Source of the DNA: Thermoanaerobaculia bacterium
Lineage (GTDB): Bacteria > Acidobacteriota > Thermoanaerobaculia > UBA5066
Assembly (NCBI GenBank): GCA_963719225.1
Contig: CAVRAY010000001.1
Coordinates: forward strand, 1,632,001 to 1,696,000
Direction: 5' to 3'
DNA length: 64,000 nucleotides
A program made the translations under genes and the position numbers. Position 1 is the stretch's first letter. Each line of letters starts with the position of its first letter. Below the pieces are notes generated by a model. That model did no database searches. It saw only the letters and a program-made list of their open reading frames with translations, and was not told where the DNA came from. Below, in pieces: positions 893-61,045 of the stretch.

Positions 893-3184
893 TCATCCCT
901 CGAGGCCCAGCCTCTTCAGGAGCTCGAGGAATCGCGGCTCGCTCCGAAGAGGGTCGAAACGGGGATGGACCTTCAGCCAGACGAGCGTGGAGTCGTGCTC
1001 GTCGTACGCGCGCTCGAGCCATTCCAGCGCGAATCCGGTTTCCCCGAGGCGCGCGTAGATCGACGCGAGTCCCCAGGGAGAGACGTATTGCCGGTCGCGC
1101 CGCGCCTTGAGCTCCTCGAGAACGTCGAGAGCCTCCTGCCGCCGACCCGCGACCGCGCAGGCGTTCGCGAGCCCGATCGACGGATCCGCGACGGTGTTCC
1201 CGGCGAGCGCGACGGCCCTCTCGTAGTGCCGGATCGCCTCGTCGATCCTCCCGCACGACTCGAGGGCACGCGCGAGGTCGCTGTGGCCGGCCAGGAAGTC
1301 GGGATCGAGCTCCAGCGCCTTGCGGTACGCCTCGATCGCCTCGTCGTAGCGGCGCGCGTAGAAGAGGACGTCCCCGACGGCCGTGTGGATGATCACGGAG
1401 AGAGGATCGAGCTCCAGGGCGCGGCGCGCCTCGGTGATCGCCTCTTCGTGGCGGCCCAGCCCCGAGAGGAGCTGCCCGTACCAGCGGTGGCCCGTCGCGT
1501 AGCCGGGACTCAGCCGCACGGCGTCCCGGAATTCCCGCTCCGCCGAGGACCACTCCCAATCGTAAAAGCGGCGCACGAATCCGAGAGAGGCATGGGCTTC
1601 CGCGAGGTTGGGGTCGAGCTCGAGGGCGCGCAGAGCGGCGCTCTTGGCCTGCGGGAAGGCCTCGGAGGGCGGCAGCGCCTTGATGTTGCCGAGCACGCCG
1701 AAGGCATCGGCAATCCCTCCCCACGCAAGGGCATACGATGGATCCAGCTCGATCGCGCTCTCGTAGTTTTGGATCGCGGCGCGCATGCCTTCGGGTGTCC
1801 ACTTGTTCCAGAAGAAACGTCCTTTCAGATAGAGCTGATACGCCTCGGCGTTCCGCGTGTGCTGCTTGGCGACCTTCCGCCTTTCCGGAGCGCTCAGCTT
1901 GAAGCGCAGGTGCTCGCAGATCTCGTGTGAGATTCCCTCTTCGATCGCGAGGAGGTCCTGCATCGGCCGCTCGTAGCGTGCTCCCCAGAGTCGGAATCCG
2001 GAGGAGACGTCCACGAGCTCCGCCTGCACGCGCAGGAGGTCGCCGACCTTCGAAAGGCGGCCGGTCACGACGGCGCGTACGTCGAGCTCGCGGCCCGCGG
2101 CCAGAGGATCGATCTCGCGTCCGGAAAAGCGAAAAACGGTGCTCCGCGCCATGACGCGAAGCTTCGGGAGATGGGAGAGCGTGTCGATCAGGCGTTCCGT
2201 GATGCCGTCTCCGAGGTAGTCGTGTTCGCTCTCGCCGCCGGCGTTCACGAGGGGCAGCACCGCGACCGAATCGATGGCCTTTCTCTTCCGGCTTCGCGAA
2301 GGCCCCGAGGCAGAAGCTTCGAGGAGTTCGCGGAGTCGCGTCGCGAGGACGACAGCCGAGGAGGCGCGGCGGGCGGGGTCCTTCTCGAGACACTGCCGCA
2401 CGATGTCTTCGACGGCGGCGGGGACGTTTGCGCCGGACGTCTTCGGCGGCTGTTCGTGAAGAATCGCCGTCATGATCTCGGCCGCGGTCTCCTTCTGGAA
2501 CGCCCGGCGACCGGTCAACATTTCGTAGAGGATTGCGCCGAAGGAAAAAACATCCGAGCGCGCGTCGGCAGGCAAGCCGCGCACCTGTTCGGGGGACATG
2601 TAGCCGACAGTGCCGAGGACGGTCCCCGGCTCCGTCGGGCGCGTCAGCGTCGGCGCATCCGCCTCAGGAGAGGAAACGCCCGCCGTCAGGTCCTTCGCGA
2701 GGCCGAAATCCAGGACCTTCGCCCGGCCGTCGCTCGTGATCATGACGTTCTCGGGCTTCAGGTCGCGGTGGACGACGTTCTTCTGGTGTGCCGTCGCGAG
2801 GCCCTCCGCGATCTGCCGGGCGAGGTCGAGAGCCGTGCGCGTCGGAAGGGGTCCCGAAAACAGGCGGTGCCGGAGCGTTTCGCCTTCGACGAGCTCCATG
2901 ATCAGGAGATGACGCGTCGACGATGAGGAAGAGAGGGGACCGGGGATTTCTTCGAATGAGTAGATGGCAGCGATTCCGGGATGATTGAGCGCTGCGAGTA
3001 GCCGGGCCTCCCTCTCGAACCGCTCTTTCCTCTCTTCACCTTCTAGGAAATCCTCCGGCAGTACCTTTACCGCGACCTCCCTCGCGAGCCGCAGGTCTCT
3101 CGCCCGATAGACTTCGCCCATCCCGCCGGCCCCGAGGGGCTCGAGGATCTCGAAAGACCCGAACCGGGTACCCGAGGGAATCAA
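893..3184 (-). CDS. Ser/Thr protein kinase with TolB-N-like and TPR domains
   Basis: [30 protein letters not shown]; then SVAVLPL...GITE domain and TPRs. TTG start at 3184 chosen by analogy with the paralogue at 13790. Confidence 0.92.
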
Positions 3185-3257
3185 GATCCTGAAGCGTATG
3201 ACGACGTCGCGGGCCCGCGACTCGCCCTCTTCACCTTCTAGGAAATACAATCCCCGG

Positions 3258-4982
<1,725 letters not shown>

Positions 4983-5109
4983 GGAAGAGCGAAGAGAAGA
5001 TTCTCTTGGAAGGGTGGAAGACGGGGCCGGGCGGTCGCGCCATCGAGCTCTATTCACTTTCTAAGAAGATTCTCTTCATCCGCGGCCCGGTTCTTGCGAG
5101 GTAGACTGC

Positions 5110-7095: not shown

Positions 7096-7883
7096 GGGGG
7101 ACCCGAGCGCGGCAGCCCCGATTGCTTCGGGTTGCCGGTGGGGCTCTGGTCGCGGTGGTTTTCTTCTTAGAAAGTGGGTGCGTCAGCGGGAGCGGGCCGC
7201 GCGCGTCGAGTGCTGCCGCCGCGGCCACATCGACGGCGGCATCTCCCTCTTCCCCTTTCAAAGAAAACTCTTCGACAGCGTCTCCCGCTGCTTCTCTTCT
7301 TGAAGCGTACGAGAGGGCGCGGGTCGCGGCCTGGGATCCCGCCCGCCGCTTCAAAGCGCTCTTCAAGGCGGAGGTGTCGCCGAAGGCCGGCGCGGTGGGT
7401 CGCGGCTACCTCTCCGTCTGGTGGGACGGGGCGAGCGGCTCGCTCACGTGGCGGTCTTCGGCGCCGATCGCCGGAAGAGGAAGAGGGGGATTTCTTAGAA
7501 AGGGAAGAGGGGACGCCGGTGCCGCCGCGGCAGGTGCCGGTGCCGGCGGCGCCGGTCGCTCGCCGCTTCCTGGGAAAACCTCCGCGGATGACCTGATCGC
7601 CTGCGTCCTGGGCACGCCGGATGCCCCCGCCTCGTCCTCATTACCAGTCGACGAAACTCCGAGAGGCTTACTGCTGCGCATCGACGGCTCGAAGAGCTCC
7701 GTCCTCCTGGACCGGGAGGGAAAGCCGATTGAATTCTCTTTTCCGAACGACGAGACCGTGAAGCTGCAGCCGGGGGAAGGCGTGCCGCGCCGCATCGAGG
7801 CGAGCGGGCCGGAGGGCCGGGCGGTCCTCACTCTCGAATCCTATTCGTCGTGGCCGGAGAACGAGCGAGTGCCCCCGGCATGA
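7092..7883 (+). CDS. Putative lipoprotein at the syntenic position of lolB
   Basis: GTG overlaps the TPR gene stop; hydrophobic stretch and lipobox-like LESG-C; lies between TPR gene and ispE. Confidence 0.6.
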   Translation: MRGTRARQPRLLRVAGGALVAVVFFLESGCVSGSGPRASSAAAAATSTAASPSSPFKENSSTASPAASLLEAYERARVAAWDPARRFKALFKAEVSPKAGAVGRGYLSVWWDGASGSLTWRSSAPIAGRGRGGFLRKGRGDAGAAAAGAGAGGAGRSPLPGKTSADDLIACVLGTPDAPASSSLPVDETPRGLLLRIDGSKSSVLLDREGKPIEFSFPNDETVKLQPGEGVPRRIEASGPEGRAVLTLESYSSWPENERVPPA

Positions 7884-8818
7884 CCGGGGCCGGAAGGGCC
7901 ATCGTCGTCGAAGCGTTCGCGAAGGTGAACTGCTCGCTGCGCGTGCTGGGGAAGAGACCCGACGGTTTCCACGAGCTCGACACCATCTTCCAGACGGTGG
8001 ATCTCACCGACACGATGTATTTCTTAGAAGGTAAAGAGAAAGACGGCGCGGCGGGCGAGGTCTCTCTCACAATCGAGGGCGGCGCGTCGAAGGATCTGCC
8101 CGCGGACTCGAGCAACCTGATTCTCCGCGCCGCCAACGCGTTGCGCGAGAGGTTCGCGGTGCGCGCAGGCGCCCGTATTCACCTTTCTAAGAGAATCCCG
8201 ATCGGCGGCGGGCTCGGCGGCGGCAGTTCCAACGCTGCAGCGACCTTGAGGGCGCTCGACTCTCTCTGGCACTTGAACTCCTCTGACGCCGATCTCCACC
8301 GGCTCGCAGCCTCCCTCGGATCCGACGTGCCTTTCTTCCTTCTCGGCGGTCGCGCCCGGGGCACCGGGCGCGGCGAAATCCTGGAATCTCTTCTGGACGG
8401 CCCCGAAGAATGGCTCGTTCTCGTCTTTCCCCCGTTCTCTCTTTCCACGGCAGCGGTTTACGGCGCGTTTTCCGCGCCCGCGTTGACAGATTCCGCAGCC
8501 CAAACTAACCTGCGCGCCTCCGACTCCGGTGGCGGCCCGGACCGGAACGACCTGGAATCGGCGGCGGAGTCCCTCCGGGGAGAGTTGCGCGGGATCCGTC
8601 TGGCCCTGTCGGACCTCGGCGCGACGAGCGCACGCCTGTCCGGGAGCGGCTCGACGGTGTTCGGGGTATTCGGCGACGAAGAAAGCGCCCGTCGGGCGTT
8701 CGAAGGGCTCGAGGGATTGCGAAAAGAAATGATGGCGACGACGACGATCGTGAAGACCGTGTCGAAGGCGGCATTCGCGCGCCGCGCGACACCCACTGTC
8801 AGGGCGCAACGCGGATGA
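7880..8818 (+). CDS. ispE: 4-diphosphocytidyl-2-C-methyl-D-erythritol kinase
   Basis: AFAKVN, DGFHEL, KRIPIGGGLGGGSSNAA, GSDVPFF, LSGSGSTVF. Confidence 0.95.
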   Translation: MTGAGRAIVVEAFAKVNCSLRVLGKRPDGFHELDTIFQTVDLTDTMYFLEGKEKDGAAGEVSLTIEGGASKDLPADSSNLILRAANALRERFAVRAGARIHLSKRIPIGGGLGGGSSNAAATLRALDSLWHLNSSDADLHRLAASLGSDVPFFLLGGRARGTGRGEILESLLDGPEEWLVLVFPPFSLSTAAVYGAFSAPALTDSAAQTNLRASDSGGGPDRNDLESAAESLRGELRGIRLALSDLGATSARLSGSGSTVFGVFGDEESARRAFEGLEGLRKEMMATTTIVKTVSKAAFARRATPTVRAQRG

Positions 8819-13789: not shown

Positions 13790-16390
13790 ATGACGCTCGC
13801 GCCAGGCACACGCCTCGGTCCTTATGAGGTTCTCGCCTCGCTCGGCGCGGGAGGAATGGGCGAGGTCTACCGGGCGAAAGACCCGAAACTCGCGAGAGAG
13901 GTCGCGGTAAAGGTTCTGCCTGGGGATTTCTTAGAAGGGGAAGAGAGACGGGAGCGATTCGAGCGGGAGGCGCGCGCGCTCGCGAGACTCAATCACCCTG
14001 GCATCGCCTCCGTATATTCATTCGAGGAAATCCCCGGTTCTTCCTCTTCCTCAACTTCTTCCTCTTCGTCTTCCTTGTCCCGCCACATCCTCGTCATGGA
14101 GCTGCTCGAGGGCGAGACGCTGCGCGCGCGCCTCGCGGGCGGGCCGCTGTCGGTCCGCAAGGCGGTGGACTTCGCGGTCCAGGTCGCACGGGGCCTCGCT
14201 GCGGCGCACGAGAAGGGCGTCGTCCACCGCGACCTCAAGCCGGAAAACCTCTTCGTGACGAGGGACGGCCGGGTCAAGATCCTCGACTTCGGTCTCGCGA
14301 AGTCCGTCGAAGCCGGCGCCGGGAGCGGCGGGACGAACCTCCCGACGATGTCGAAGGGCACGGAGCCGGGCGCGGTTCTCGGGACGCTCGGCTACATGTC
14401 GCCGGAGCAGCTCCGGGGCCTCCCCGCGGACCACCGGACCGACCTCTTCAGCTTCGGTGCGGTGCTCTACGAGATGCTTTCCGGGCGGAAAGCGTTCCGG
14501 GGCGACACGGCGGCCGACACCGTCTCGGCGATCCTGCGCGAAGAGCCGCCCGATCTCTCCGCGACGAACCGGACGATCCCGCCTGCGCTCGAGCGGATCG
14601 TGCGCCACTGCCTCGAGAAGAGTCCGGATGAAAGAGCCCATTCCGCGCACGACCTCGCGTTCGACCTCGAGTCCCTCTCGACGGCGTCTTCCGGGTCCAT
14701 CGCGCCGTCTCGAGCGGTCGCCTTCCGAAAACCCTCCCGGCAAGCTCTCATCCTCGCTTCCGTATGCGCCGCGGCCGGCTTGCTCGGCGGGCACGTCGTC
14801 TGGAGGACGCCCGTGCCGGCGCCGCCGACGTTCCACCGGCTCACGTTTCGGCGCGGGAACGTCCTCGGGGCGCGTTTCGCGCCCGACGGCCGGACGGTCG
14901 TGTACGGCGCGGCGTGGGGAGGCGCACCCTCGGAGATCTTCACGGTGCGCACGGAGGGTCCTGAGTCGCGGCCGCTGGGGTTCTCGTCCGCGACCGTGTT
15001 GTCCGTGTCTTCCGGCGGCGAGCTCGCGATCCTCACACGAGAGGGCATGACGGACCCGGGCGCCTGGGGAACGCTTGCGCGAGTGCCGCTTTCGGGCGGG
15101 GCTCCGCGGCCGCTTCTCGAGGAGGTCAACGACGCCGACTGGACGCCCGACGGCAAGGAACTGGCGGTCGTACGCGTCCGCACGGAAGGCGGTCGACGCA
15201 TCGAGCTTCCACCCGGGAAGACTCTCTACGAGACGTCGCGCAGGCTCGGGTCCCTGCGTGTCTCGCCGGACGGCTCGAAGGTCGCCTTCGTCGAGTACGG
15301 AGACGGGGACGCTTCGCTGCGCGTGGTCGACCGCGCGGGGAAAGCGCGCACGATCGCGGGACCGATGGCATCTTTCTCCGGCCGCTTTGCCTGGAACCCG
15401 TCGGGCCGCGAAGTCTGGTATTTCGGCGGGAGTGGCCGGAAGGACGCGGCGCTCCGCGCCGTGGATCTCTCGGGTCGGGTACGGACGCTCTATCGCTCGA
15501 CGGGCTTTCTCTTCGTGCACGATGTTTTCCCGGACGGGCGCGTGCTCCTCGAGCACGCCGCAAGCGTGCGCGGGCTCATGTTCGCGCGCACCGGCGACCG
15601 GCAGGAGACGGAGCTATCCTGGTTCGACAGCTCGCGGATCGTGGCGGTGGCTGCGAGGGGGCGCGCGGTCCTGTTCAACGAGGGCGGCGAGGCGCTGGGC
15701 GGCCGGCTGCAGGCCTTCTTCCGGAAGACGGACGGCTCGTCCGCCGTACGTCTCGCCGACGGCGAAGGGCTTGCTCTCTCCCCGGACGCGACGCGCGTCA
15801 TCATGCGCACCGGAGACGGCCTGACGATTGCCCCGGTGGGCGCCGGTGCGCCGGTTCCCGTTGGGCTCGGCCCGATCGCAGGCGTGACGTCCGCTTCGTT
15901 CTTCTCCGACGGAAGGCGGCTCCTTCTCCATGGAGCCGAGAAGGGAAAGCGTCCGCGGTTCTGGATCGTCGAACCCGGAGGCATCCCTCGTCCGATCTCG
16001 CCCGAAGGCACGCTCGGGGACGCCGGGCTCATGTCGCCTGACGAACGGAGGGTGATCGGCTGGGCGGCCGACACGTCGATCCTCTCGATCGTCTCGACCG
16101 AGGGAGCTGCGGCACGCACCCTCGCCGGAACGCAGTACGACGAACCCCTCGGCTGGACGGCCGACGGCCGGTCGATCTACATCCGCCCGAGCCCCGGACA
16201 GCTGGGGATGATCGGCACGCTCGACGTGGACACGCTTGCACGCAAGCCCTGGAAATCGTTCGCACCGCCGGATCCCTCGAGCGTCTCGTCCTTCCCGGGA
16301 GTCGCGTTCGCTCCGGATGGATCCGCGTATGCCTACACGTACCAGCGCGTGCTGACGTCCGACCTCTACGTGGTCGAAGGGCTGAAGTGA
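13790..16390 (+). CDS. Ser/Thr protein kinase with C-terminal TolB/PD40-like beta-propeller
   Basis: Complete kinase motifs, short hydrophobic segment, then repeated (F/W/V)-(S/A/T)-P-D-G blades. Confidence 0.92.
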   Translation: MTLAPGTRLGPYEVLASLGAGGMGEVYRAKDPKLAREVAVKVLPGDFLEGEERRERFEREARALARLNHPGIASVYSFEEIPGSSSSSTSSSSSSLSRHILVMELLEGETLRARLAGGPLSVRKAVDFAVQVARGLAAAHEKGVVHRDLKPENLFVTRDGRVKILDFGLAKSVEAGAGSGGTNLPTMSKGTEPGAVLGTLGYMSPEQLRGLPADHRTDLFSFGAVLYEMLSGRKAFRGDTAADTVSAILREEPPDLSATNRTIPPALERIVRHCLEKSPDERAHSAHDLAFDLESLSTASSGSIAPSRAVAFRKPSRQALILASVCAAAGLLGGHVVWRTPVPAPPTFHRLTFRRGNVLGARFAPDGRTVVYGAAWGGAPSEIFTVRTEGPESRPLGFSSATVLSVSSGGELAILTREGMTDPGAWGTLARVPLSGGAPRPLLEEVNDADWTPDGKELAVVRVRTEGGRRIELPPGKTLYETSRRLGSLRVSPDGSKVAFVEYGDGDASLRVVDRAGKARTIAGPMASFSGRFAWNPSGREVWYFGGSGRKDAALRAVDLSGRVRTLYRSTGFLFVHDVFPDGRVLLEHAASVRGLMFARTGDRQETELSWFDSSRIVAVAARGRAVLFNEGGEALGGRLQAFFRKTDGSSAVRLADGEGLALSPDATRVIMRTGDGLTIAPVGAGAPVPVGLGPIAGVTSASFFSDGRRLLLHGAEKGKRPRFWIVEPGGIPRPISPEGTLGDAGLMSPDERRVIGWAADTSILSIVSTEGAAARTLAGTQYDEPLGWTADGRSIYIRPSPGQLGMIGTLDVDTLARKPWKSFAPPDPSSVSSFPGVAFAPDGSAYAYTYQRVLTSDLYVVEGLK

Positions 16391-37706: not shown

Positions 37707-37829
37707 AGTTTTAGTCTATCTCAAAACTCGGAAGCGCGCCACGCGACGCCCGGCGGTCGGTCGGGATGCCGAGGTCGGAGAGGTCGCGCGGCTGGCGCTC
37801 GAAGCGCCCTGCTTTATCCTTGCGTTAAC

Positions 37830-38328: not shown

Positions 38329-38359
38329 GGCTCGGCCGTCGCGCTACCATCGCCACCTC

Positions 38360-38812: not shown

Positions 38813-39343
38813 ATGAGGAAGACTTTCTTGACCGCCGTAGCCATGCGCTTTCTGACATTAGCGGTGGCGCTATCGTCCGGTGTAGTTCTCGCACAGAAGC
38901 CCGCCGACGTTCACGGCTGGGGAAAAGTGAAGTGGGGGATGACCCTCGCGCAGATCCAGAAGCTCTATCCAGAGGCGGAGCCGTTCACGAAGACGTGGGA
39001 AGACGGAAGAAAGTCGTCTGGACTGAGAATCCCCAAATTCGACCTGATCCACTTCCCGTTCGAGGTCACGTTCTGGAAGAAGGACGCCGACAAGAGGCTC
39101 GATTCAATCAGCCTCAGTACCGAGGCGGGCATGGTCGTGTTTAGGGAACTTGAAAAGCAGCTGACGCTCAAGTACGGCTCTCCTACGTTGAAGGATGATT
39201 CGAAGCCTCGGAAACGCTCCCGCACGTGGATGTTTCCGTCAACTGAGATTGAACTCTTGTTTTTGGAGTGGTTGCCTCCAGCTCCATCGGAAGTGAACCT
39301 CGGCTACTCGCCCGTCGATAAGGGTTCGCGCGACAAGTTGTAG
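38813..39343 (+). CDS. Hypothetical secreted protein (cargo)
   Basis: Signal peptide, GWGKVKWGMT, LTLKYGSP; AT-richer than the backbone. Confidence 0.7.
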   Translation: MRKTFLTAVAMRFLTLAVALSSGVVLAQKPADVHGWGKVKWGMTLAQIQKLYPEAEPFTKTWEDGRKSSGLRIPKFDLIHFPFEVTFWKKDADKRLDSISLSTEAGMVVFRELEKQLTLKYGSPTLKDDSKPRKRSRTWMFPSTEIELLFLEWLPPAPSEVNLGYSPVDKGSRDKL

Positions 39344-39656
39344 TCGATTCTCTTGAAGGGGGTCGAGAAGTGGCCCGCCGGGCGGCGCCATCGCCCAGCC
39401 GACGAGAGCCGCCCCAACGGGCCGCACGTTCCGTCAGGGCAGACCCTTCGATGCACGATGACGAGGAAGGTTCGTGTTTTCACCGGTAGCTCCTTTCAAG
39501 GGGAAACCCGTTCCAACGGTGAAACGGGTTTTGCGCGCGAAGGTAGGGGCGGGCGCTCGCAACGCCCGCGCAGTAGCGGGGTCCGCCGAACCCTCGGCCA
39601 CGAGGACCGCGACCGGCGACGCGCAACGGCGCACCGCGACGGCGGAGGTGGGAGAT

Positions 39657-39908
39657 TCACCACGGGAACTTCGTGCCGCCGAGGACGGGGCGCGGCTCGA
39701 AGCCGTCGTCGGGCGCGAGCTTTGTGAGCGACTCGGCGTCCTTCTCGGCTCTCGCGGCTTCGCGGAAGTCGCACTGTCCAAAATCGTTCGCGCTGTAGAT
39801 GAGTGTCGATTCTTGGCCGAGTCGCTCGTCGGATGCGGCGACGGCGGCCTTGAGGTCGCTCTCGCTCGGTCGGTCGATCGGGCCGAAGGTGAGACCGAAG
39901 AGTTTCAT
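39657..39908 (-). CDS. Hypothetical protein, 83 aa
   Basis: AAAGGAG RBS; co-oriented with the element backbone. Confidence 0.6.
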   Translation of the reverse strand: MKLFGLTFGPIDRPSESDLKAAVAASDERLGQESTLIYSANDFGQCDFREAARAEKDAESLTKLAPDDGFEPRPVLGGTKFPW

Positions 39909-39959
39909 GATGACGTGCTCCTTTCGTTGGTCGTTGGTCGATGGTTGGGAAGGGACGGG

Positions 39960-40448
39960 CTATTTGAAAACTTCGGGATGGCTGCCGAACGCGCTGCCGA
40001 GCGGGTTCAGCACCAATTCGTAGTCGACGAGCCGCGTCAACCGGCGAGCGGCGGTGACGGCCTCGGGCGCGAAGACGACGGAGACCGAAGGCACCGGGCG
40101 AGCGCCGAGCGTTTTCAACTCGGCCTGAAGAGCCCACGCCTCGCGGATGGCGGCGTCGCGCTTGTCGAGGGCACAAGCCGCGCCAACGAGCGCCGCACCG
40201 AGCGCCGCGACGACGCGCGCGACGTCATCCGAGATGGCCGCGTGCTCTCTTGTCGCGGCGTCGATCCTCGCCTGCTTCTCGTGCTCGGCCTTCTCGCGCG
40301 CCTCCTCCTCCCCGCGTGCCTTCCGCTCCTCGTCGAGGCGCACCTCCTCTGCCTCCGCCTCCCGGAGGCGCCTCGACGAGGCCGCGAGCGTCCGCACCTC
40401 TTCTTCGGTCATCGTCTCGGCCGGTTTCGCAAAGGGGTTCATGCTCAT
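39960..40448 (-). CDS. Hypothetical coiled-coil protein
   Basis: CAGGAGG RBS; E/A/R-rich helix; start overlaps the upstream stop. Confidence 0.65.
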   Translation of the reverse strand: MSMNPFAKPAETMTEEEVRTLAASSRRLREAEAEEVRLDEERKARGEEEAREKAEHEKQARIDAATREHAAISDDVARVVAALGAALVGAACALDKRDAAIREAWALQAELKTLGARPVPSVSVVFAPEAVTAARRLTRLVDYELVLNPLGSAFGSHPEVFK

Positions 40449-40977
40449 GCGTACCTCCTGTCGGTTTCGATGATTGCGGCGATCTCGTCGCCGTCGAGAT
40501 GCTTCCGATCCGCGAGCGCCTCGGCGATGAGCCGCCACGCGCGACGGTGTTCGGCGATGACCGTCCACGCCCCGACTGCGGCGTCGCAGACGATCTCGTG
40601 GACGCGCGGCGCGAGGCGTTCGAGAAGGGCCGCGAGCGCCGGGCCGTCCTCGGGCACGAGGCCGCCCGTCCGCGCGTGCTCTTCGAGTGCGATGTTCTGC
40701 GCGTGGCGGTACGCGATCCCGAGGTCGCGGCGCGAGCATTCGAGATCTGCGGCGAGCCCGAGCCTCATCCGATCGGACATGAGCCCGGCGACCGCGACGA
40801 GGACCATGACCCTCGGGGTCCCCGGCTGCGTCAAACCCCGCCGGCCGCGAACGGTCGCGAAGTCGGCGCCGTCGCCCTTCTCGGCGACGACGACGTAGCG
40901 GCCTCGTGAAAATCGACCTCGCCGGGCGCAGAGCGAGGGCACGCGACGAAGCGCGGCACGACGAGCGCGCTCACCAT
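40445..40977 (-). CDS. Peptidase M41-like small protein (frameshift near 40898)
   Basis: FHEAA(H)VVVA restored by one base; C-terminal LIAEALADRKHLDGDEIAAII resembles the FtsH protease tail. Confidence 0.5.
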
Positions 40978-41723
40978 TTCTCCCTGTCGGCGACGGTGAG
41001 CAGCGCCTCGGGCAACACGCCGGACCTCGCCGGCCTGAAGGTGCACGTGTCGCCAGCGCGGAAACTCGACCTTCAGCCCCAAGAACGCGACCGTGCATCC
41101 GTTGTGTCCGTCCTCCCATTCGCTAAAGAGCACGCGCAGGCGGGAGAACTTCCGCTCGATTTCGAGGACGACTTCCTCGGCATCCGGCGCGCGCGGAACG
41201 AAAGGCCCCTCGCTCACGCGACCTCCTCGGCCACCGGCGCCAGGTTTTTCTTTGCACGACTCGCCCTCGGCTTTCGCTCGCGGCGCATCGCTTCGGAGGC
41301 GGCGTCGCGCTCTTTTCGATCTTCTCGGCGAAGGCGCGCCCGCGACGGAGCGCCTCGGAGACGGCAGCCTCACGGCCAAGCAACGTCTCCATCGCCGTCT
41401 CGGCGAAGCGGTCGCCGCGCGCCTCGCCGGAGAAGACGACCTCGCCGCACTCCTCCGTGACACCGACGCCGCGACGCCCGAGGGCCGCGATGAGGACGGC
41501 GACCTCGTCAACCTCGGTTGCGCTCGCGCGGCAGCCTGCCGCACGCCTCGGCCCCCCCGTTCGGGAGGGCGGCCCGGTCCGGCGCCTGCTCTTCGGCCAC
41601 GCAGGCTCCGGCAGATGCCGCGAGGGGATGCGCGAGGCTCCACGGCTGACTGATGCAAATGAACCGTTCACGTCGGCCGGGCACTCGCCGCATCCTGCGT
41701 GTGTAAACACTGGAGGCATGACG

Positions 41724-42041
41724 ATGCGTAGGAAGTTGCTGAACCTCGGCGTTCTTGTGATCGCCCTCGGGGTAGGCGCAGGGTGCAGCAGCACGGCCAT
41801 CCCCGGTGCCGAAAACGTGCGCATCACCGAGGACCCGAAGGACGTCGCCGCGTGCAAGCTGATCGAGGCGCGGCCGTCCGCCTACGTGTTCAACACGAAG
41901 GCCGTCAGGGTCACGCTGCAGGACTTCGCCATGCAGCACGGCGGCGATACCGTCCTGCTTCGCGTCCCGAACGCGGGCGTTATTTACAACTGCAAGGGTG
42001 TAGACACGCGCCAGCCGGTCCCCGTCGCGCCGCCGAAGTAG
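41724..42041 (+). CDS. Small lipoprotein (DUF4156-like), cargo
   Basis: GGAGG RBS; lipobox GAG-C; VAACKLI...GGDTVLL...IYNC. Confidence 0.7.
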   Translation: MRRKLLNLGVLVIALGVGAGCSSTAIPGAENVRITEDPKDVAACKLIEARPSAYVFNTKAVRVTLQDFAMQHGGDTVLLRVPNAGVIYNCKGVDTRQPVPVAPPK

Positions 42042-42250
42042 GAGCGAGGGCGGACCTGGGCCTTCTTCGCGCTCGTCGTGACGAACGGTGAGCTTCCCAA
42101 TCAGCACCGCGCACTCGTCGACCTCGCTCGCGCGGCAGCCTGCCACACGCCCGAGCATCTCGGCCGGGGCCGAGGCCGCGCCTCCCGGCAGTTCGCCTGC
42201 GTGCGGCCTGCCGGCAGCGGAGGCGCCCGGCTTCGCAGACTTCGGCGCGC

Positions 42251-43718
42251 TCACCAGTCACCGTCCCACGCCGAGCGCGTCGGCGGGCTGCCCCAGGCCA
42301 CGAGCTTCTCCGCCGCCTCGGGCGTCAGCCAGGCGCTCGGCTGCCGATCGCCGCCGATGTCGTCCAACGTGAACGACCGGCCACCGGCCGCGACGCTCAA
42401 CGCGACGAGGAGCGAGTCGAAGAGGTCCGGCGAGTCCGACGGGTCGACGCAGCGAATCTTTCCGCTGCTCGTGATCAGGTACTTCATCCCGAGAAGCTCG
42501 CGGCGGAGGCCGTCGTGCTTCGGAAGGCGGAAGAGGCCCGCTTCGAGGAGGCCGCGAAGCGCCCACGCAAGTTCAGCCTTCACGTTGACGAAGCGGTCCG
42601 GTTCGAGGGCGCGGTCGCTCGCGCGGAACGCGACGATGCCGAGCGCCTTCTCCTCGCGCAGCGCGTCGGCGACGCCCTGCCCGATCGCCACCGTGTCGAT
42701 CGCGAGGACGCGCGCGCCGGCCTCGCGCAACCGCATCAACGTCTTCCCGCGCGTCACGGCGGTGTCGCGCTCGTGCCAGCCCTCGACCGAACGAAGTTGA
42801 AAGCGGCCGAGAGCGTCGGGGCCGGCGAGAAGCGAGAGCGCCGAGGCGTCGCCCGCGACGCTGCCCGCAACGTCGAGACCGGCGACGGGCACGCCGTCCA
42901 CCTCGAAGCCGGCGTCTTCGGCTCTCGCAATCCAGGAGTACGGGAACAAGCTGCCTTCGTCGTCGGCGATGTAGCGCGCGAGGCACCTGCTTTGATACTC
43001 GGGCGACTGCTCGCCCCATTCGGCGAGGCGAGCGGCCTTCCATTCCGCCTTGCCCGGCAGGCCCTCGGCGATCAGGTCGTCGATCGTCACGACGGCGCGA
43101 ACGACACTCGGCCCACCCTTGACGTCGCGCTCATAGAACGGGCCGGAAGGAATCGACGGGGTCGAGATCATCACGTCGAGCGTCTCGGGCGCGTCGAGGA
43201 GCGCCTCGGTCGACTCGAAGATCGCGGGCTCGATCGCCTTCGCCTCGTCTGCGATTCGGAGCGCCGCCACCGGGGAGTGTCTGCCTTCCAAGTTCACGGC
43301 GTGATCCGTCGAGAGGCCGACGAGGTCCCACGCGACGCCGAACGTCAGTTCCGTCTGCAAGAGGCGGCCGACGCCGGCCGAGGCGAGGAGGCTGCCGCCG
43401 TAAAGGCGCGCCAGCTCGACCCAGAGGACGCCTTCCACGGCCGCCCACGTCGGCGCCGTCGTCAGGCCGCGAGCGCCGGGCCTCGTCGCCATCCACCACA
43501 GACCGAGTGCCGCCGCCTCAAGTCGTCTTACCAGCGCCGTGTGCCGTTCGCGCGTGAACCCGGAGATGCTGCTTGCCGCGAACGAGGCGCGCGCGGATCT
43601 CCTCGCAGTGCGCGGCCTGCCAACGCCGAGGCTCGCCGCGAAGGACGAGGCGCCAGAAGAGCGCCGGATCGTCGCGACACTCCGCGAGGACGAGGGCGAG
43701 GTCGCGAGCGGTCGTCAC
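42251..43718 (-). CDS. Terminase large subunit (frameshift near 43520)
   Basis: PRRWQ, Walker A AHGAGKT, TAPT, Walker B IADEA, ISTP, nuclease GLDVA, AIDTVAIG, SPDLFDS. Confidence 0.85.
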
Positions 43719-44313
43719 GAGCCGGCTCCGTCTTCGGGGTCCGACGCGGCGCCCGGCACAGAGACGCGCGGTTTTACTAACCTCGGATCGCCCCCCTTAA
43801 GTCCCGCCGCCAGAACGCCAGCCGGTAAAGCGGGTACGACATCGGGACGGGTCGCAGAGGTTTCCTCGCCCCTCGTCGCCTCGACCTTGAGGGCCGACGC
43901 GGGCTCGGCCGAACCTTCTACAACGCCCTGCGCCAGCTGCGCGCAGGCTTGTGTGACCTGAGCGGCTTCGAGCCCGGCTCTTCTCTGCCGAGCTTCGGCA
44001 AGGGCGCGCGCAAGCTCGGCGCTCAAGTCGCCGAAGCCGCCGCCCAGCGTGACCGACTGTTTCGGAGCGCCCCAGCTCCAGAGCAGAATCGCACGAGCCG
44101 CCTCGAATCGAATGCGCCCGCTGCGCGACGAGAGCAACGCCCGGAGCGTCTCGGCGGCCTGCGCACTCATCGCGTCGGCGACCTCGATACCGGCGCGCGT
44201 TCGACGATCCTTCAGGCCACGCGGGCGGCCGGGATTCTTCGGCGGGAACGGCCGGCCGATTCGCGTCTCGGGCGATCCGTTCGCGCGGCGGGCACGCCCG
44301 TCGTCTCCGTCAT
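43715..44313 (-). CDS. Putative terminase small subunit (start or frame uncertain)
   Basis: GRPFPPKNPGRPRG in frame upstream of the tracked ATG, helical AARAILLWSWGAPKQ; directly upstream of and coupled to terL. Confidence 0.5.
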
Positions 44314-44320
44314 TCAGCCT

Positions 44321-44431
44321 TCTCCGTTCCGAGGCGTTCCGACCCGTTCCGACCAGTTCCTAGAGCGCGTCGGGAACACGTCACCCTCTCCGGCGCCGGG
44401 ACGCCGCGAGGCGTTCCCACGAGGCGTTCCC
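44321..44431. repeat. Iteron-like GTTCC repeat cluster (candidate origin)
   Basis: Four tandem 10-mers ending GTTCC (44321-44360), inverted GGGAAC near 44372, two GAGGCGTTCCC (44408, 44421). Confidence 0.65.
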
Positions 44432-44486
44432 GGCGCCCCGGGGGTACGGGGGGGAAATGACATCTCAAAACTCACCCCTTCGGCGG

Positions 44487-45763
44487 TCACGGGAGGGCCT
44501 CCCCGGGCGCCTCGACGTTTTGACGCGTTCCCGCTCCTGCCTCGTCCGTCGCGACCCAGACCCGAACGGTCCGCCGGTCGCCGTTCGCGTTCAGGCGTAC
44601 TACCGTTTCGAGGCGGATTCGGCCCTGCGCGTGACGCTGCCCGGCGAGATCGCCGACCCACTGCTTACGGCGACCGAGCGCCTTCGCCAGCTCCTCGACG
44701 GTGAGCCCGTCCCGGTGCCGGCGGAGGAGGAGGTCGAAGTCCTCCAGTTGCGCCGGTCGCGCTCCTCTGCCTTCGCGCTCGCCTCTGCCTTGCGGCGCTC
44801 CGGCGACGAGGGCTGCTCCTCGTCGGTCGACTCGGCGACCCGGTAGACGGCGAGGTCGCGGGAGTAGACGAGGGCGAGCGGCGACGGCTCGTCGCCGCTC
44901 CGAACCTTGTCGAAGACGAGGAGGCGCGCGTCGCGGTCGGAGCCCTTCGGGTGCTCGAAGATGAGCGAGAGGTCCGGGTCGTCGCGCATCGCCGACGTTC
45001 CCCGGATACGGTGACGGGATTCCTTTCCGTCTGTCGGCTTCGAGAAGTGGTGGAGGACGAGGAAGGCGATGCCGTGCTTCTCGGCGAGGCCGAGGAGCGG
45101 GCGGACGACGCCGGCCCGAAAGCGCGAGGCGTCGTTCTCGTCGTCGAAGTAGAAGCGCCCGAGCGGGTCGGCGACGACGAGCTTGATGCCGACGGCGGCG
45201 CAACGCGCGACCGTCGCGGCGAACTCCGGCGAGCGAAACTCCGCCGGCCGCGCTCCGCGCGACGGGACGTAGAAGTCCGGGGCCTCGATACCGAGCGCGT
45301 CGGCCGCCACGCGAATGCGGCGCTTGAATAGCTGCCGGTTTCCCTCCGCGAGCCAGTGAAAGACCGGAGCCGGCGAATGCGAGCGCCATCCGAACGCGCC
45401 GCGCCCTACGGAGAGGAGCAGCCCGGCGTTGACGGCGAGCGTCGTCTTACCGACGCCTCCCTCCCCGGAAAGCATCGCTAGCCCGCCCGCCGGGAGGAGC
45501 CCTTCGAGGAGCCACGCGACCGGCTCCTCCTCCTCGCCCAAGGCGGCGGAGAGGAGCACCGGCTCGACGCCACCATCGGCCGCGACGACGCGCCGGCCGT
45601 CCGACGCGGGCGAGGCGGGTTCCGTCGCGGGCACCACGAACTCCTCGCCCCAGTCGTTCCCGGCCTCCGTCGTCGAGTCGGCGTCGCGTGCCGCCTCCTC
45701 GCGCGTCGCGCCGAGACGTGCGACCTCCTCGATGATGTGGCTCGGCCGGTTCGGCTCGGTCAT
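44487..45763 (-). CDS. AAA_25/RepA-like replicative helicase with C-terminal HTH (frameshift near 44754)
   Basis: WLLEGLLP, GEGGVGKT, LVVADP, LVLHH, IRGTSA; shifted frame continues GLTVEELAKALGR. Confidence 0.82.
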
Positions 45764-46281
45764 CCGCGCCCCCGCGCCCGCTTCTGCTCCCGAGCGACAC
45801 GAGCGAAAACCTCGAGGATCTCCTCCTCGTTAGGCACCGGGCCGGCGTAGTTCGTCACCCAGGCCCCGACGAGGACGAGCGCGACGAGGTGAGCGACGCC
45901 CTTGTCGAGAAGGTAGCGCGTCAGGGTCGCGATCGCGTCCGCCCGCTCCTCGCCGAACGCGAGGCGCGTGGCGATCTTCAGCACGGCGCCGTCGGGCGTC
46001 TTCTCGAAGAAGTCCGCCCCCCGCTTCCCGACGAGTTCCCCGAGCCACGCCGGCGCGCGCTCGCCGATCAACGCGCGGGCCGCGAGCCTCCGGTTCCGCG
46101 CCGCCGCGATAGCGGCCCGCCGCTTCTCCTCGGAGGACATCGCCGCGCGCCGCGACTCCGCCTCTCGGACGAACGCGCCCGCGTTGAACGCGAGGACGTC
46201 CGCGAGGCGCTCGTCGGCGGTGCCGTCTAGCGCGGCGCGGGCCGCCTCGTCGTTCGCAGGCACCTCGATGACGTCGCTCAC
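45760..46281 (-). CDS. Primase C-terminal (PriCT-1)-like protein
   Basis: GEERADAIATLTRYLL..G...PVPNEEEILEVF; coupled to the helicase gene. Confidence 0.5.
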   Translation of the reverse strand: MSDVIEVPANDEAARAALDGTADERLADVLAFNAGAFVREAESRRAAMSSEEKRRAAIAAARNRRLAARALIGERAPAWLGELVGKRGADFFEKTPDGAVLKIATRLAFGEERADAIATLTRYLLDKGVAHLVALVLVGAWVTNYAGPVPNEEEILEVFARVAREQKRARGRG

Positions 46282-47313
46282 GCGCGGTCCGCTCCGAGCA
46301 CGAGGTCCGCCGCGACCTCGTCGTCGTCCGGCCGCGCCCTCTCGTCCGCGACCTGCTGCGCCTGGACCGAATCGGGCGCCTCCTTCCCCCATGAATCAAA
46401 GCCGGCAATCGTGCGTCTCGAAAACATGTCCAGCCGCCTCCCGGCCGTGACGCGCCGGACGAGGTCGTAGAACGCCTCGGGCTTCTCGCTGTGCTTGCCG
46501 CGCGGCGCCTCGAAGCAGGTCGGGAACGCCTTCGTGTCCATGAACAACGGCGAGCCCTTGCGCGCGTAGAGGGCGAACTCGCAGTTGTACGCCGGACCTC
46601 CGAGCGGCTGGTAGCCGCCCGGCTTGTGCCAGACAAACGTGCAGACGTACGTCAGGCCCCACGTCCGAAGCAGGCCGAACGCGTCCGGAAGAAACCGATG
46701 CGTCGTCCAGAGCCAGAAATGGGCGTCCTCTGCCAGCGGCGGCGCTATCGCCGCGATCTCGTCGAGGCTCATCGTCGGGTACTGAAAACCCGGGTGACTC
46801 GGGCTATCGCGCTCCATCCACTCGACGGGCCACGGTGGGTCGTCGACGGCGGCGTCGTAGGTCCCGGCAAGGGCCTTTGTTTCGCGGGCCTCGACGTCGT
46901 CGAGCTTCCGCCGCGCCTCGTCGCACCTAGCTGCCTGCCGAAGGCGACGATGTCTTTTCGCTCCGTCTCGGGCGTCACTTCGCCGGACTCGATGGCCGCG
47001 AGGAGCTTCTCCTCGGGCCACCGGGAGAGTTGATAGAGCGTTCCCACGAGGGCGGTAAAGCGAAACGGTGTTTCGCATTTGAGAGGACTGGGTTACGGGC
47101 AATGGCCATGAGCATCTGCGCCGCGCGTGGCCCGAAGGGCAATTCCGCCTCGACCATCGCCTCGAAGTCGCCGTGCTGTAGAGCCTCCTTCGCCCCGAGG
47201 AGAAGCCGGCCGGTGCCAACGATCCCTTCGACGAGCCCGGACCACATGGCGTAGATCGCGTCGCGCCAGTCGGCGGCCGTAGACAGCGCGGCCGGCATGA
47301 TGGCGGCGCTCAC
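46278..47313 (-). CDS. DUF3102-like/MT-A70 adenine methyltransferase fusion (frameshifts near 47044 and 46943)
   Basis: GRLLLGAKEALQHGDF...LPF; DPPW, YPTMSLDEI, WLWTT, FVWHK, HSEKP, LDMFSR. Confidence 0.8.
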
Positions 47314-47618
47314 GCGGTCCTCCGGCGTACTAGCGGGGCGGGCGTCAACGCGGCCTCCGTCACCCTGCGCCACGCGGCGACCATCCTCGGCGTCGAGACC
47401 CAACGGCCCGACGAGTCGCGGCGCACGAGCAGGTCGAGCCGATGCCGCGCGCGCTCCGACGGCGAGCGGAGCCACCTTCTCAAGGTCGCGACGCTGCGCC
47501 GGATCGACGACGCGACCTCGTCGAGCCCGATCTCGCGATCGGCGCCGCCGACGAGCGCGATGCGCTCAAGCTCCGCGACGCGGCGCGCGAGGTCCGCGAT
47601 GAGGGCGGCCTCGCTCAT
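47310..47618 (-). CDS. HTH DNA-binding protein (excisionase/AlpA-like)
   Basis: IGLDEVASSIRRSVATLRRWL. Confidence 0.6.
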   Translation of the reverse strand: MSEAALIADLARRVAELERIALVGGADREIGLDEVASSIRRSVATLRRWLRSPSERARHRLDLLVRRDSSGRWVSTPRMVAAWRRVTEAALTPAPLVRRRTA

Positions 47619-47839
47619 CGCGAGCCGCCCGCAGCGATCTTGTCGACGGCCTCGTCGAGACGGCGGAGCACGTCGGGGTCCACGCGCTCGGGGAATCTTT
47701 CGGCGATGGACGCCGTCGTCAAGCTCACGTGCGCGACCCTCGCCGTCTCGGCCAACGTGAGGCCGGCTCCGTTGACGGCGACGCGGAGACGCTTCAGGCG
47801 AAGCTCGGTCGCGGGCGAGAAGATGCGGCGTCGTTCCAT
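47615..47839 (-). CDS. Cro-like HTH protein
   Basis: LKRLR...GLTLAETARVAHVSLTTASIAER. Confidence 0.6.
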   Translation of the reverse strand: MERRRIFSPATELRLKRLRVAVNGAGLTLAETARVAHVSLTTASIAERFPERVDPDVLRRLDEAVDKIAAGGSR

Positions 47840-47911
47840 CGGCGCCGCTAATTACGAATCTAAATCGGGGCGCCGCGCCGGACGAGATGTCGCGGATCTC
47901 GTCCGGGATTT

Positions 47912-48652
47912 CTAGCGCTTCGGTCGCCCGCCCGCGCTCTTGGTCGCCCGCTCGACGCGCTTTCTAATCGCCTCGGCCAACCGCTCCAGCACCAGCGGGT
48001 CGCGCTCTACAGCCACCTTTGCGGCTTCCGGGTCGCGCGACCGTCGGTCGATCCTCTCGGCCCAAAGGACGAGCCCCTGCTTTGCGGCGCTCCGTCCACG
48101 GCGCCGCATCTCGTCGACGTGACGCGCTACCTGTCTTCTCAAGTCCGCGATCGCTCGCGAGTCCCCGGCCGTCGCCGACGAAAGGCTCGCTCCGGCTCCC
48201 CGAAGAAGACTCTTCGAGAACGCGAGCGCGTCGAGGAGGTCGACGTCGCGCCGCCGCTCACGGAGGGATGCTTTTACGCCCGGATCGAGGACCCGTCGCC
48301 GCCTGAGCGCGCTTACCACATCGTCGAAGGCGTCGGGCATGCGGCCGTCCTCGTGCAACATCGCGAGGTTGATGAACGCCTCCTGGACGCTCGAAGCTCG
48401 GACGACGGTCATGTCCTCGGCGAGCAGTTCGCCGAGGCGGTACACGAGGTCGGTTCGGTGCAACCCGCGAGCCGCGAGCCACTCGCGGACACGAATCTCC
48501 GCCGCGTACGCGCCGGAGAGGTGCCAGAAGGCCGAGACGCCAAGCTCTCCGAGGCCCTCTGCGGTCCGGCGAAGCCTCGACGCGTGCACGTCTCTCGTTG
48601 CCGCCGTCGCCGTCTTCGGTTTCGCGCCCACGTTCCCTCGCTCCCCTCGCAC
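47912..48652 (-). CDS. Hypothetical protein
   Basis: Long ORF co-oriented with the backbone; no recognised motif. Confidence 0.5.
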   Translation of the reverse strand: MRGERGNVGAKPKTATAATRDVHASRLRRTAEGLGELGVSAFWHLSGAYAAEIRVREWLAARGLHRTDLVYRLGELLAEDMTVVRASSVQEAFINLAMLHEDGRMPDAFDDVVSALRRRRVLDPGVKASLRERRRDVDLLDALAFSKSLLRGAGASLSSATAGDSRAIADLRRQVARHVDEMRRRGRSAAKQGLVLWAERIDRRSRDPEAAKVAVERDPLVLERLAEAIRKRVERATKSAGGRPKR

Positions 48653-59348: not shown

Positions 59349-59368
59349 GAGGGGCCCTCCACCGTCGA

Positions 59369-61045
59369 TTGTCGCGCAGGACGCGATCCGGAGGCGGCGT
59401 CGTATCGTTACGGCGCTTGAAAGAGTCGTCAGGTTCCCTCCGGATCCCGCTCCTCCTCGCGGCGGCGGCGGCCGTGCTTTACCTCGTCGCCGCGGCCGGG
59501 CGCGATTTCTGGGCGCCCGACGAGCCCGATTTCGCCGAGCACGTGAGGGAGATGCTCGAGAGGAGAAGCCTCCTCCTGCCCTACCAGAACGGGAAGCCCT
59601 ATTCGGAGAAGCCGATCTTCTTCTACTGGGCGGTCGCGGCGACGACGCCGCTCTCGGGCGGCGACGTGAAACCGCTTGCGACACGCCTGCCTTCCGTCCT
59701 CGCGGGCGCGACGCTCGTCTTTTGCGCGGCCTCTTTTGCCGGCCGGCGCGGGGGAGATCGGGAGGCCCTCGTCGCGGGCGCGGCAACCGCGGTCGCGCCG
59801 ATCGTCTTCTGGCAGTCGCAGTTTCTGCAGGTGGATGCGCTCTTTTCCTGTTTTCTGATGCTCGCGCTTGTTTCGGTGTTTTTCTTAGAAGGTGAAGAGG
59901 GACGGCCCCGGGCGACGGGTTGGCTCTGGGCGCTGCGGGTGGCGCTCGCAGCGGCGGTCCTGACCAAGGGCCCGCTCGCGATCGTCATCCTGGGTCTGGT
60001 CGTCCTCGCCCGTTGCACGATGGCGAGGTCTTTGCGCCTGCTTGGCCGGCTGCAACCCTTTCGAAGCATCCTCGTCTTTCTTCTCCTGGTCGTCCCCTGG
60101 TACTTCTTCGCCGCGCGGGCCGGCGGGCCGGCCTATGCCTACGACCTGGTCGTGAACCAGAACTGGAACCGATTCTTCCGGGCGTTCGATCACATCCAGC
60201 CGTGGTGGTTCTATTGCGAGAGCATCTGGGGGGACTTCTTCCCGTGGACGGCATTGGCGCTCGCGGCGCCCTTCCTCCTCTCGCGCGCGGGCGTGCTTCG
60301 CGAAAGACCCGATCTGCGGTTCGCGACGACGGCCGTCGCCGTGACGTTCGTGTTCCTTTCGCTGTCCGGGTCCAAACAGGGGAAATACCTGCTCGCCGCA
60401 TACCCGTTCGCGGCGGTGATCGTCGCGGCTCTCGCGGGAGAGGCGGAGCGCAGGGCCCAGGCGGGGAAAAGCGGCCTTCTGCGGGTCGTGCGCGGCTGGG
60501 TCGCGTTCGCGGCGGTCCTTCTCTTCCTCGCGGCGGTGGCTCTCGCGCCGGTCATCCGGCGGCTCGCCCCCGAGCAGTTCGGCCTCGTGCCCTTCGGCGC
60601 TATCCCGATCGGCCTCGGCGCCGCCGCGACGATCGCCGTCCTCGTCTGGCGAAAACGCGAAGCGGTTGCCGGACTGCTCGCTCTCGCGGCGACCCTCGCG
60701 GCGGGGGAGGTCGTGGCGGGCGCCGTCGTCTTCCCGGCCATCGACACGCTGAAGACCGGAAGGCCCTTTTACGAACGCCTCCGGCCGCGCGTCTCTCACG
60801 GCGAGCCGCTCGCATACTTCGGCGGAACGTATCGCTGCTATCCCATCCTCGTGCTGAGGCGGAAGACCGAGCACTTCCGGGACGACGTCGCGCTCGCCCA
60901 GTGGCTCGAGAAGACTCCCGGAGGACTCGTCCTCGCCGACGAAAGCGAGCGTCAGCACTGGACGGACGCGCGCCTTTCCCGGCTCGTCGTCCTCGACCGG
61001 CAGCGCGTGGGCAGCGACGAGGCTCTCCTCCTGGGCAGGCCATGA
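59369..61045 (+). CDS. ArnT/PMT-like glycosyltransferase (GT-C fold)
   Basis: APDEPDFA, YSEKP, RLPS, LTKGP, PWY, H.QPWWFY, KQGKYLL; many TM segments. Confidence 0.9.
   Translation: MSRRTRSGGGVVSLRRLKESSGSLRIPLLLAAAAAVLYLVAAAGRDFWAPDEPDFAEHVREMLERRSLLLPYQNGKPYSEKPIFFYWAVAATTPLSGGDVKPLATRLPSVLAGATLVFCAASFAGRRGGDREALVAGAATAVAPIVFWQSQFLQVDALFSCFLMLALVSVFFLEGEEGRPRATGWLWALRVALAAAVLTKGPLAIVILGLVVLARCTMARSLRLLGRLQPFRSILVFLLLVVPWYFFAARAGGPAYAYDLVVNQNWNRFFRAFDHIQPWWFYCESIWGDFFPWTALALAAPFLLSRAGVLRERPDLRFATTAVAVTFVFLSLSGSKQGKYLLAAYPFAAVIVAALAGEAERRAQAGKSGLLRVVRGWVAFAAVLLFLAAVALAPVIRRLAPEQFGLVPFGAIPIGLGAAATIAVLVWRKREAVAGLLALAATLAAGEVVAGAVVFPAIDTLKTGRPFYERLRPRVSHGEPLAYFGGTYRCYPILVLRRKTEHFRDDVALAQWLEKTPGGLVLADESERQHWTDARLSRLVVLDRQRVGSDEALLLGRP

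Follow-up and report, generated by a model that had tools for sequence, protein, structure and literature searches.

Facing pairs of a degenerate DNA signal bracket mosaic segments of core genes in a genus of Thermoanaerobaculia

Why should the same AT-rich word of about 20 bp recur in unrelated core genes of a bacterium whose genome is 68% GC? We addressed this question in a 64,000-nt stretch of DNA (the window) from the 4.75-Mb genome of a member of the class Thermoanaerobaculia (G000), which is assembled in two contigs, C1 and C2, and of which the window covers C1:1,632,001-1,696,000. An earlier note on the window had listed ten copies of the word, in two kinase genes, ispE, other genes, and intergenic DNA, and had proposed a DNA-level signal such as an uptake sequence or the site of a chromosome-organizing protein. 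The ten sequences are all present where the note placed them, on the strands it gave, and a degenerate copy that it saw near position 5000 is a match of 23.9 bits centered at 5007 (+). The genome-wide and comparative results reported here favor a signal of the uptake-sequence kind over a plain chromosome-organizing site, given the mosaic, mobile character of the DNA that paired copies enclose, and they identify the unit as a facing pair of copies bracketing 60-300 bp and not a lone dispersed word.

A converged 27-column position weight matrix (PWM) described the motif as a purine-rich flank, W-T-T-T-C-T-T-M-G-A-A-R-G, and then K-R-A-A-R-R-R-G, which amounts to an asymmetric, degenerate site of about 25 bits. 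Both sides of the core, and not its tail alone, have purine-rich flanks, and the proposed core, TTC-N3-GAA, gives way to the asymmetric T-T-T-C-T-T-M-G-A-A-R-G; TTC-N3-GAA by itself has 60 matches in the window. The string TTTCTTAGAA occurs 197 times in the genome vs 1.15 times expected under an order-4 Markov model, and at a threshold of at least 16 bits the PWM returned 869 windows vs 16.6 in an order-5 Markov simulation, or 864 genome copies once overlapping PWM windows were merged. Called genes contain 573 of the 864 sites, and this share is a lower bound because our home-made gene caller missed some genes. The 557 sites counted in called genes for the codon controls compare with 101-108 in five within-gene synonymous shuffles, about one fifth as many, and with 60-72 in five genome-wide synonymous resamplings, and 68 of the 222 TTA codons in called genes lie inside motif cores. 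The motif is used on both strands, as had been noticed, and in all six reading frames. These counts, together with the arms aligned among relatives that are described below, bear out the earlier suggestion that a signal at the DNA level prevails over codon bias.

Several trivial sources of such a pattern were rejected. The Markov, shuffle, and relatives' counts rule out an artefact or a codon effect, and an assembly artefact is excluded because 28 other genomes carry the motif at orthologous columns. Genic sites split nearly evenly between sense and antisense (294 vs 279; 111 vs 93 for unpaired sites), which rules out an RNA-level function, and two tRNAs were the sole RNA-family matches in the window. 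The reverse complement of the 3' end of the 16S rRNA gene and the start of the internal transcribed spacer (C1:905,529) scores 12.8 bits on the motif PWM; the variable middle base of the motif speaks against pairing with this junction, and we treat the resemblance as a coincidence.

The sites have a strong mutual orientation. Where two lay within 600 bp, a + site was followed by a - site 370 times and a - site by a + site 33 times, with same-strand orders found 79 and 66 times. Adjacent facing pairs no more than 300 bp apart account for 558 of the 864 sites; among the remaining 306, a weak partner was found downstream of 110 vs upstream of 9, and in other genomes a facing partner stood beside 90 of 115 exact matches. 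The distance between the two arms of a pair is 59 bp at the 5th percentile, 106 bp at the median, and 235 bp at the 95th percentile, and most of the enclosed spacers are unique host sequence. No helical spacing period of 10-11.3 bp was found among the pairs, which rules out a rigid DNA loop. The arms of one pair match each other at 15.33 of 27 columns vs 15.24 +/- 0.13 for shuffled partners, so that there is no arm-to-arm covariation, and the predicted folding of spacers is no stronger than that of shuffled sequences (z -0.16 vs -0.46 in controls); together these results rule out a selected hairpin, and the pairing of arm with arm in the predicted fold of 64 of 70 blocks is explicable by the consensus alone. 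Because the arms of a pair have no extra likeness and the spacers no fold, the two arms are probably read separately, on double-stranded DNA. A check for invertible segments found no excess arm identity and, among the joints listed against relatives' contigs, none that inverts a spacer.

The arms and host genes of the window are as follows.

2941-2967, + strand: arm of 28.0 bits inside a Ser/Thr kinase gene, facing the arm at 3030-3056; overlooked by the earlier note
3030-3056, - strand: arm of 32.0 bits, completing a 93-bp kinase-type pair and read as FLEGEE in the kinase
3225-3251, - strand: extra arm of 28.1 bits at the 5' end of the kinase open reading frame, at the junction with a divergent mutase gene
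4983-5082, no strand: intergenic pair block with arms centered at 5007 (+) and 5063 (-)
7157-7183, + strand: arm of 18.3 bits facing the arm at 7246-7272
7246-7272, - strand: arm of 33.9 bits; this arm and part of the spacer are missing in G012, G014, and G020
7485-7511, + strand: arm of 35.7 bits, read as FLRKGR in the gene between a TPR gene and ispE
7636-7662, - strand: decayed partner arm of 8.3 bits, which reaches at least 14 bits in 9 of 17 relatives
8014-8040, + strand: left arm in ispE, 33.9 bits, kept in 17 of 18 genomes
8041-8173, no strand: ispE spacer, ordinary ispE coding sequence
8174-8200, - strand: right arm in ispE, 24.9 bits, read as IHLSKR and kept in 18 of 18 genomes
13921-13947, + strand: arm of 34.4 bits in a second kinase gene
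14010-14036, - strand: its partner arm of 22.3 bits, forming a 93-bp kinase-type pair; overlooked by the earlier note
59875-59901, + strand: arm of 34.0 bits in an ArnT/PMT-like gene
60049-60075, - strand: weak partner arm of 13.4 bits, 178 bp from the arm at 59875
893-3250, - strand: host gene, Ser/Thr kinase with TPR repeats
7158-7883, + strand: host reading frame between the TPR gene and ispE, with no Pfam family; "lipoprotein" is the earlier note's label only
7880-8818, + strand: host gene ispE (TIGR00154, above cut-off)
13790-16390, + strand: host gene, Ser/Thr kinase
59369-61045, + strand: host gene, ArnT/PMT-like glycosyltransferase

The earlier note had passed over the arms at 2952 (+) and 14025 (-) and the weak partners at 7651 (-) and 60064 (-), and therefore missed the facing-pair arrangement. 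It had also seen no good copy in a radical SAM cluster and an integrated element; there is indeed no site of at least 12 bits in 14100-59400, but the gap is not specific to those two features, because ordinary genes lie there too. The cluster (29794-34413) holds two DegT-family aminotransferases and two radical SAM/SPASM genes, and the element (34651-48000), which is without motif copies, has an integrase (34689-35960, - strand) adjoining a tRNA-Arg(CCT), along with terminase-like and AAA_25 genes. Elsewhere on C1, the 93-bp pair recurs in nine genes of a tandem run of kinases (C1:2,293,328-2,319,611), in which the outer, pyrimidine-rich flank has grown into poly-Ser inserts that vary in length.

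The signal is real and is restricted to two genera. An exact 12-mer of the motif has 27-245 copies in each of the 29 of 29 genomes of the genus vs two copies in total in 32 genomes of other genera (including one unpublished genome, G037, without a match), and a relaxed 15-mer has 7-32 copies in each of the 8 of 8 genomes of the sister genus vs one match in 26 other genomes of the family. A scan of half of a species-level genome collection with an exact 21-mer found 117 loci, 115 of them titled Thermoanaerobaculia or Acidobacteria; the two non-acidobacterial matches are lone sites in AT-rich DNA (40-45% GC). Carriage by phages was rejected, the two matches in viral contigs being likewise lone and in AT-rich DNA, and 116,561 bases of outgroup DNA had no site of at least 16 bits. 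In 43 aligned genes from three 20-kb regions, in-gene arms occupy the same columns in most of 11-21 genomes, with varying bases. Some pairs are orthologous between the genus and its sister genus, and the system is for this reason older than its expansion. Neither arm is present at five outgroup ispE loci, two of which come from the sister genus; the right arm of ispE arose by substitution, and the left arm stands in a loop 2-7 residues longer than those of the outgroups.

The DNA between the arms is mosaic. Each of the 10 testable in-gene spacers (10/10) rejected the species tree beyond the largest of 20 simulations, with a dLnL (log-likelihood difference) per column of 0.72-3.28 vs a mean of 0.28, a 95th percentile of 0.63, and a maximum of 1.19 in 86 control windows; for the ispE spacer (8041-8173), dLnL was 121, the largest value of the 20 simulations being 31. 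The hisD spacer, which was too short, was excluded from this test, as was that of hisA (C1:2668791), which had been called in the wrong frame and was included in the parsimony, distance-ratio, and identical-run analyses. Over 60-nt windows in 14 genomes, the share of parsimony steps saved by a local tree rose from 9.4% far from sites (491 windows) to 13.1% near them (109) and 20.5% in spacers (10), and the spacer excess persisted at matched substitution rate. The ratio of within-clade to between-clade distance likewise climbed from 0.51 to 0.81-0.87 at the arms and in the DNA they enclose and was 0.53-0.66 beyond 120 nt outside them; the mosaic signal fades some 100 nt outward of the arms. In the neighborhood of arms, fourfold-degenerate sites evolve faster (from 2.59 to 3.1-3.9 steps). 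Individual genes illustrate the pattern: the rluD spacer contains a 56-nt run identical between G017 and G019, genomes that are 22% different elsewhere, and two rluD protein haplotypes are scattered across clades; two kinase paralogs of G000 are 92-97% identical over 180 nt at their pair (55, 58, and 58 of 60 bases) vs 50-77% elsewhere (30-46 of 60); and in a relative with about 96% likeness, dnaE has diverged over 107 bp at an arm without any change in length.

Pairs are also gained and lost as whole blocks. The block at 4983-5082 is absent as a block from close relatives' contigs and from 17 of 19 genome rows, and a homolog of it is present in G017. In four regions taken together, 33 of the 54 junction rows that were at least 50 bp longer had gained arms (27 of them a pair) vs 8 of 590 short rows, these rows not being independent of one another. 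Blocks have also appeared in unrelated contexts. In G006, a block between sucA and the next gene is 78% identical over 143 nt to the kinase pair blocks, and its spacer still encodes a kinase motif, which identifies the kinase as the donor; a pair occurs at 1 of 26 sucA loci, the same junction is empty (about 20 bp) in G013, G020, and G001, and the right joint of the block shares a few bases with the empty site. One family of 74-75 bp blocks is found in five unrelated contexts, at the tdk-nth junction and four others, including the inside of a ligD-like gene (gene names read from translations). On C1, the 229 blocks include 2 cross-context duplicates vs 0 in six sets of 229 control segments. 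Two side observations concern the same junctions: downstream of the mutase gene, at the place taken by the pair block in G000 and G017, G007 carries another, palindromic insertion (about 150 bp) that lacks the motif, and sucA is followed by differing genes at most of the 26 loci, marking a gene-turnover hot spot with almost no motif copies.

We propose that a pair marks the 100-350 bp piece that it brackets as donor DNA that is preferentially recombined, and that pairs spread by drive in the manner of uptake sequences, only paired. We put the probability of this reading at about one half. It starts from the asymmetric arm, the facing geometry, the lack of helical phase and of covariation, the mosaic spacers, the block gains and losses, and the ectopic copies, and the mechanism as a whole is moderately supported. 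A sequence-specific protein would bind each arm on double-stranded DNA and protect or deliver the intervening piece, which would take the place of the corresponding patch in a paralog or another species and would rarely land elsewhere, through microhomology. Alleles with pairs would then spread by molecular drive and settle where proteins tolerate the arms. Action on the donor side is indicated because whole pairs reach empty sites, which breaks in the resident chromosome would not create. The route between cells would be natural transformation, which is likely because G000 has ComEC, ComEA, and DprA (together with pilin-like genes, all family-wide where examined) and because DNA as short as 20 bp can transform a soil bacterium, in the account given in PMC4255686; the short spacing of the pairs would reflect the length of donor fragments. 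Possible as well, at clearly less than even odds, is a dedicated exchange of micro-cassettes in which any 60-300 bp bracketed by facing arms would be a transferable unit, cut out or protected by a putative protein, so that short segments of housekeeping enzymes would be shuffled across species 20% apart and occasionally pasted into new sites; such an element would be defined by its brackets and have no fixed content.

The alternative that survives best, unlikely as we consider it, is that the arms are docking sites of an organizer protein that holds 60-300 bp in a loop or clamp, chiefly in the half of the chromosome around the terminus; the mosaic would then be a side effect, with mismatch repair shaded or forks stalled, and inserted blocks would be kept by selection for more sites. 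In G000, dnaA (C2:326 kb) and parS (C2:333.8 kb) are both on C2, and dif is at C1:2,037,576, near the GC-skew switch. On C1, site density decreases away from dif, from 31 to 6.8 per 100 kb, a count from which C2:610-800 kb, apparently DNA of a second, related genome, was excluded; intergenic density rises toward dif from 23 to 90 per 100 kb. The density rise toward dif keeps the organizer reading alive, as do the scarcity of pairs closer than 59 bp, the retention of arms at orthologous columns in most genomes, and the faster change of fourfold-degenerate sites near arms. Against docking stand the missing helical phase, gaps as long as 150 kb next to genes that hold 7 arms, and the whole arm-to-arm blocks at empty sites, which demand a further assumption. 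Two pairs flank dif in G000, but they are not conserved (no site at 4 of 20 loci in the genus and 5 of 7 in the sister genus), and a conserved role at dif was rejected since the arms there vary freely between loci. The ParB encoded next to dif has the same helix-turn-helix in motif-free genera.

Other features of these regions were seen in passing. The ParB gene belongs to a second parA-parB operon (C1:2,037,865-2,039,524) that lies directly beside dif and is conserved there in all four genera examined (30 loci), a ParAB system linked to the terminus. A transposase-like gene at C1:2,033,909-2,034,967 is missing from the contigs of close relatives, which have a motif arm at the joint. The excluded part of C2 (about 610-800 kb) is an inverted copy of C2 at about 6-222 kb, 73-85% identical and of higher GC (0.71), in an assembly with a listed contamination of 6.2%, and is likely to be DNA of the second genome joined into the contig.

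It is less probable still that a pair is formed by the two ends of a non-autonomous mobile element, similar to a REPIN (a doublet of repetitive extragenic palindromes) or a miniature inverted-repeat transposable element, that is cut or copied inside the cell by a putative enzyme, with in-gene ends having arisen in place and the host segment as a passenger. The likeness to REPINs, as far as these are described in PMC3116915, is considerable: both consist of two inverted short motifs with a variable spacer of about 70-110 bp, and blocks come and go as units, here between close relatives, and recur at unrelated sites, as in the family with 74-75 bp spacing. The predicted pairing of arms in 64 of 70 blocks would also fit. 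REPINs, in the same account, are extragenic, form hairpins with compensatory changes, and depend on RAYT, whereas here two thirds of the sites are genic, the spacers are mostly unique host sequence, and there is neither covariation nor a spacer hairpin. No Y1 transposase that tracks the motif was found either, PF01797 being absent from G000 and from 3 of the 4 other genus genomes searched; a resolvase was not found in G000 and does not track the motif, nor does a reverse transcriptase, present in 4 of 29 genomes. Exchange between species would in any case still require a cell-to-cell step.

We see only a slim chance that the arm is a long Chi-like stop for the helicase-nuclease AddAB, with facing arms halting resection from both ends of a fragment and leaving the bracketed piece ready for RecA. 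The geometry fits what is known of Chi, and a genus-specific AddB type, about 30-38% like that of the family, occurs in 28 of 28 relatives, with an AddA 32-36% like that of the sister genus. Yet the sister genus carries the motif with AddAB of the family type, AddAB alleles differ by about 50% within the genus while the motif is unchanged, unpaired sites are unpolarized with respect to replication (145 leading, 157 lagging), and known Chi sites are 5-8 nt long. The AddAB locus itself (C1:1,934,774-1,941,162) has been replaced in place, against the species tree, by alleles about 50% alike, and the flanking genes on both sides carry pairs. Slimmer yet is the chance that pairs cause the resident chromosome to be broken or nicked between the arms, like head-to-head Type III or Type ISP restriction sites, followed by repair from any available DNA: change is concentrated between the arms, and two colliding translocating enzymes need no phasing, but such breaks would erode sites instead of multiplying them and would make no new pairs at empty sites.

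A number of results weigh against the donor-DNA reading itself. The enrichment of very recent imports is only modest, 45-nt windows that are nearly identical in distant genomes having a frequency of 0-0.002 inside vs 0.0005 far from the pairs, and many identical runs of at least 36 nt lie outside spacers, mainly in ileS and trpE. The tree test covers 10 spacers in three terminus-side regions only, one control window (dLnL per column 1.19) exceeds 6 of the 10, and the spacers are rich in indels, so that misalignment may inflate some values; that of rluD is without indels. Ectopic copies are infrequent, since the 693 blocks include just 3 convincing families, with two weaker cross-context families left uncounted, and selection for pairs could retain random insertions that happen to hold one. 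Nor does the proposal predict that density climbs approximately fourfold toward dif (from 6.8 to 31 per 100 kb); DNA in vesicles is reportedly enriched near dif in other bacteria, which is no more than a lead for this terminus bias. No reader protein was found among the candidates examined, namely the second ParB, AddAB, RAYT, reverse transcriptase, resolvase, the ComEA-linked pilin, and DprA. The ParB beside dif, the sole ParB-type candidate examined, is family-wide and is rejected along with AddAB, which does not track the motif; among the tyrosine recombinases, counts alone gave no extra member common to motif-bearing genomes. The competence genes are family-wide (DprA in 56 of 63 family genomes; the ComEA-linked pilin, which does not track the motif, in 58 of 63) and therefore cannot explain the restriction to two genera.

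Among the classes with which we compared them, the motif pairs are neither DNA uptake sequences (DUS) or uptake signal sequences (USS) nor REPINs, and they fall outside the known classes. HIP1, the exact 8-bp palindrome of cyanobacteria, is tied to methylases and is, like the motif, an over-abundant DNA word in coding sequence across a lineage; the motif, unlike HIP1, is degenerate, asymmetric, about 25 bits in content, and arranged in oriented pairs. Chi and Ter are orientation-dependent sites, and matS and Ter are biased toward the terminus, properties that the motif shares; it differs from Chi, matS/MatP, and Ter/Tus in being unpolarized with replication and in forming about 300 close pairs over half a chromosome and not tens of single sites. 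It has no likeness in sequence to DUS or USS. In other respects the resemblance to these is close: as they are characterized in the relevant parts of PMC2397512 and PMC2817400, DUS and USS are also lineage-specific words with hundreds of copies in core genes, placed where proteins are weakly conserved, flanked by more divergent sequence, tied to recombination, and accompanied by competence genes in the genome. As far as the account of DUS in PMC2397512 goes, however, one copy suffices, inverted pairs within 21 nt serve as terminators, the mean length of conversion fragments is 1.1-1.7 kb, and the history of DUS regions is that of the core genome. Here, most arms face a partner 60-300 bp away (558 of 864 in facing pairs, with a median of 106 bp), and the mosaic, which extends over no more than about 100-350 bp, disagrees with the species tree. 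We found no description of the motif or of such pairs in the main texts of the open-access literature.

For practical work, single-gene trees of the genus should mask the bracketed patches, and a protein that moves any bracketed 100-300 bp would, if the proposal is true, be a new tool for targeted allele replacement. The roughly 300 predefined patches per genome make molecular drive vs selection directly testable, a question that is still open for DUS and USS according to the discussion in PMC2397512. The pairs would also join two ideas that have so far stood apart, the dispersed signal that overwrites proteins, as in uptake sequences, and the doublet that moves as a unit, as in REPINs. For these bacteria, the proposal would mean that genes are exchanged in pieces far shorter than ordinary transformation tracts, a mode that suits the degraded DNA of soil as portrayed in PMC4255686.

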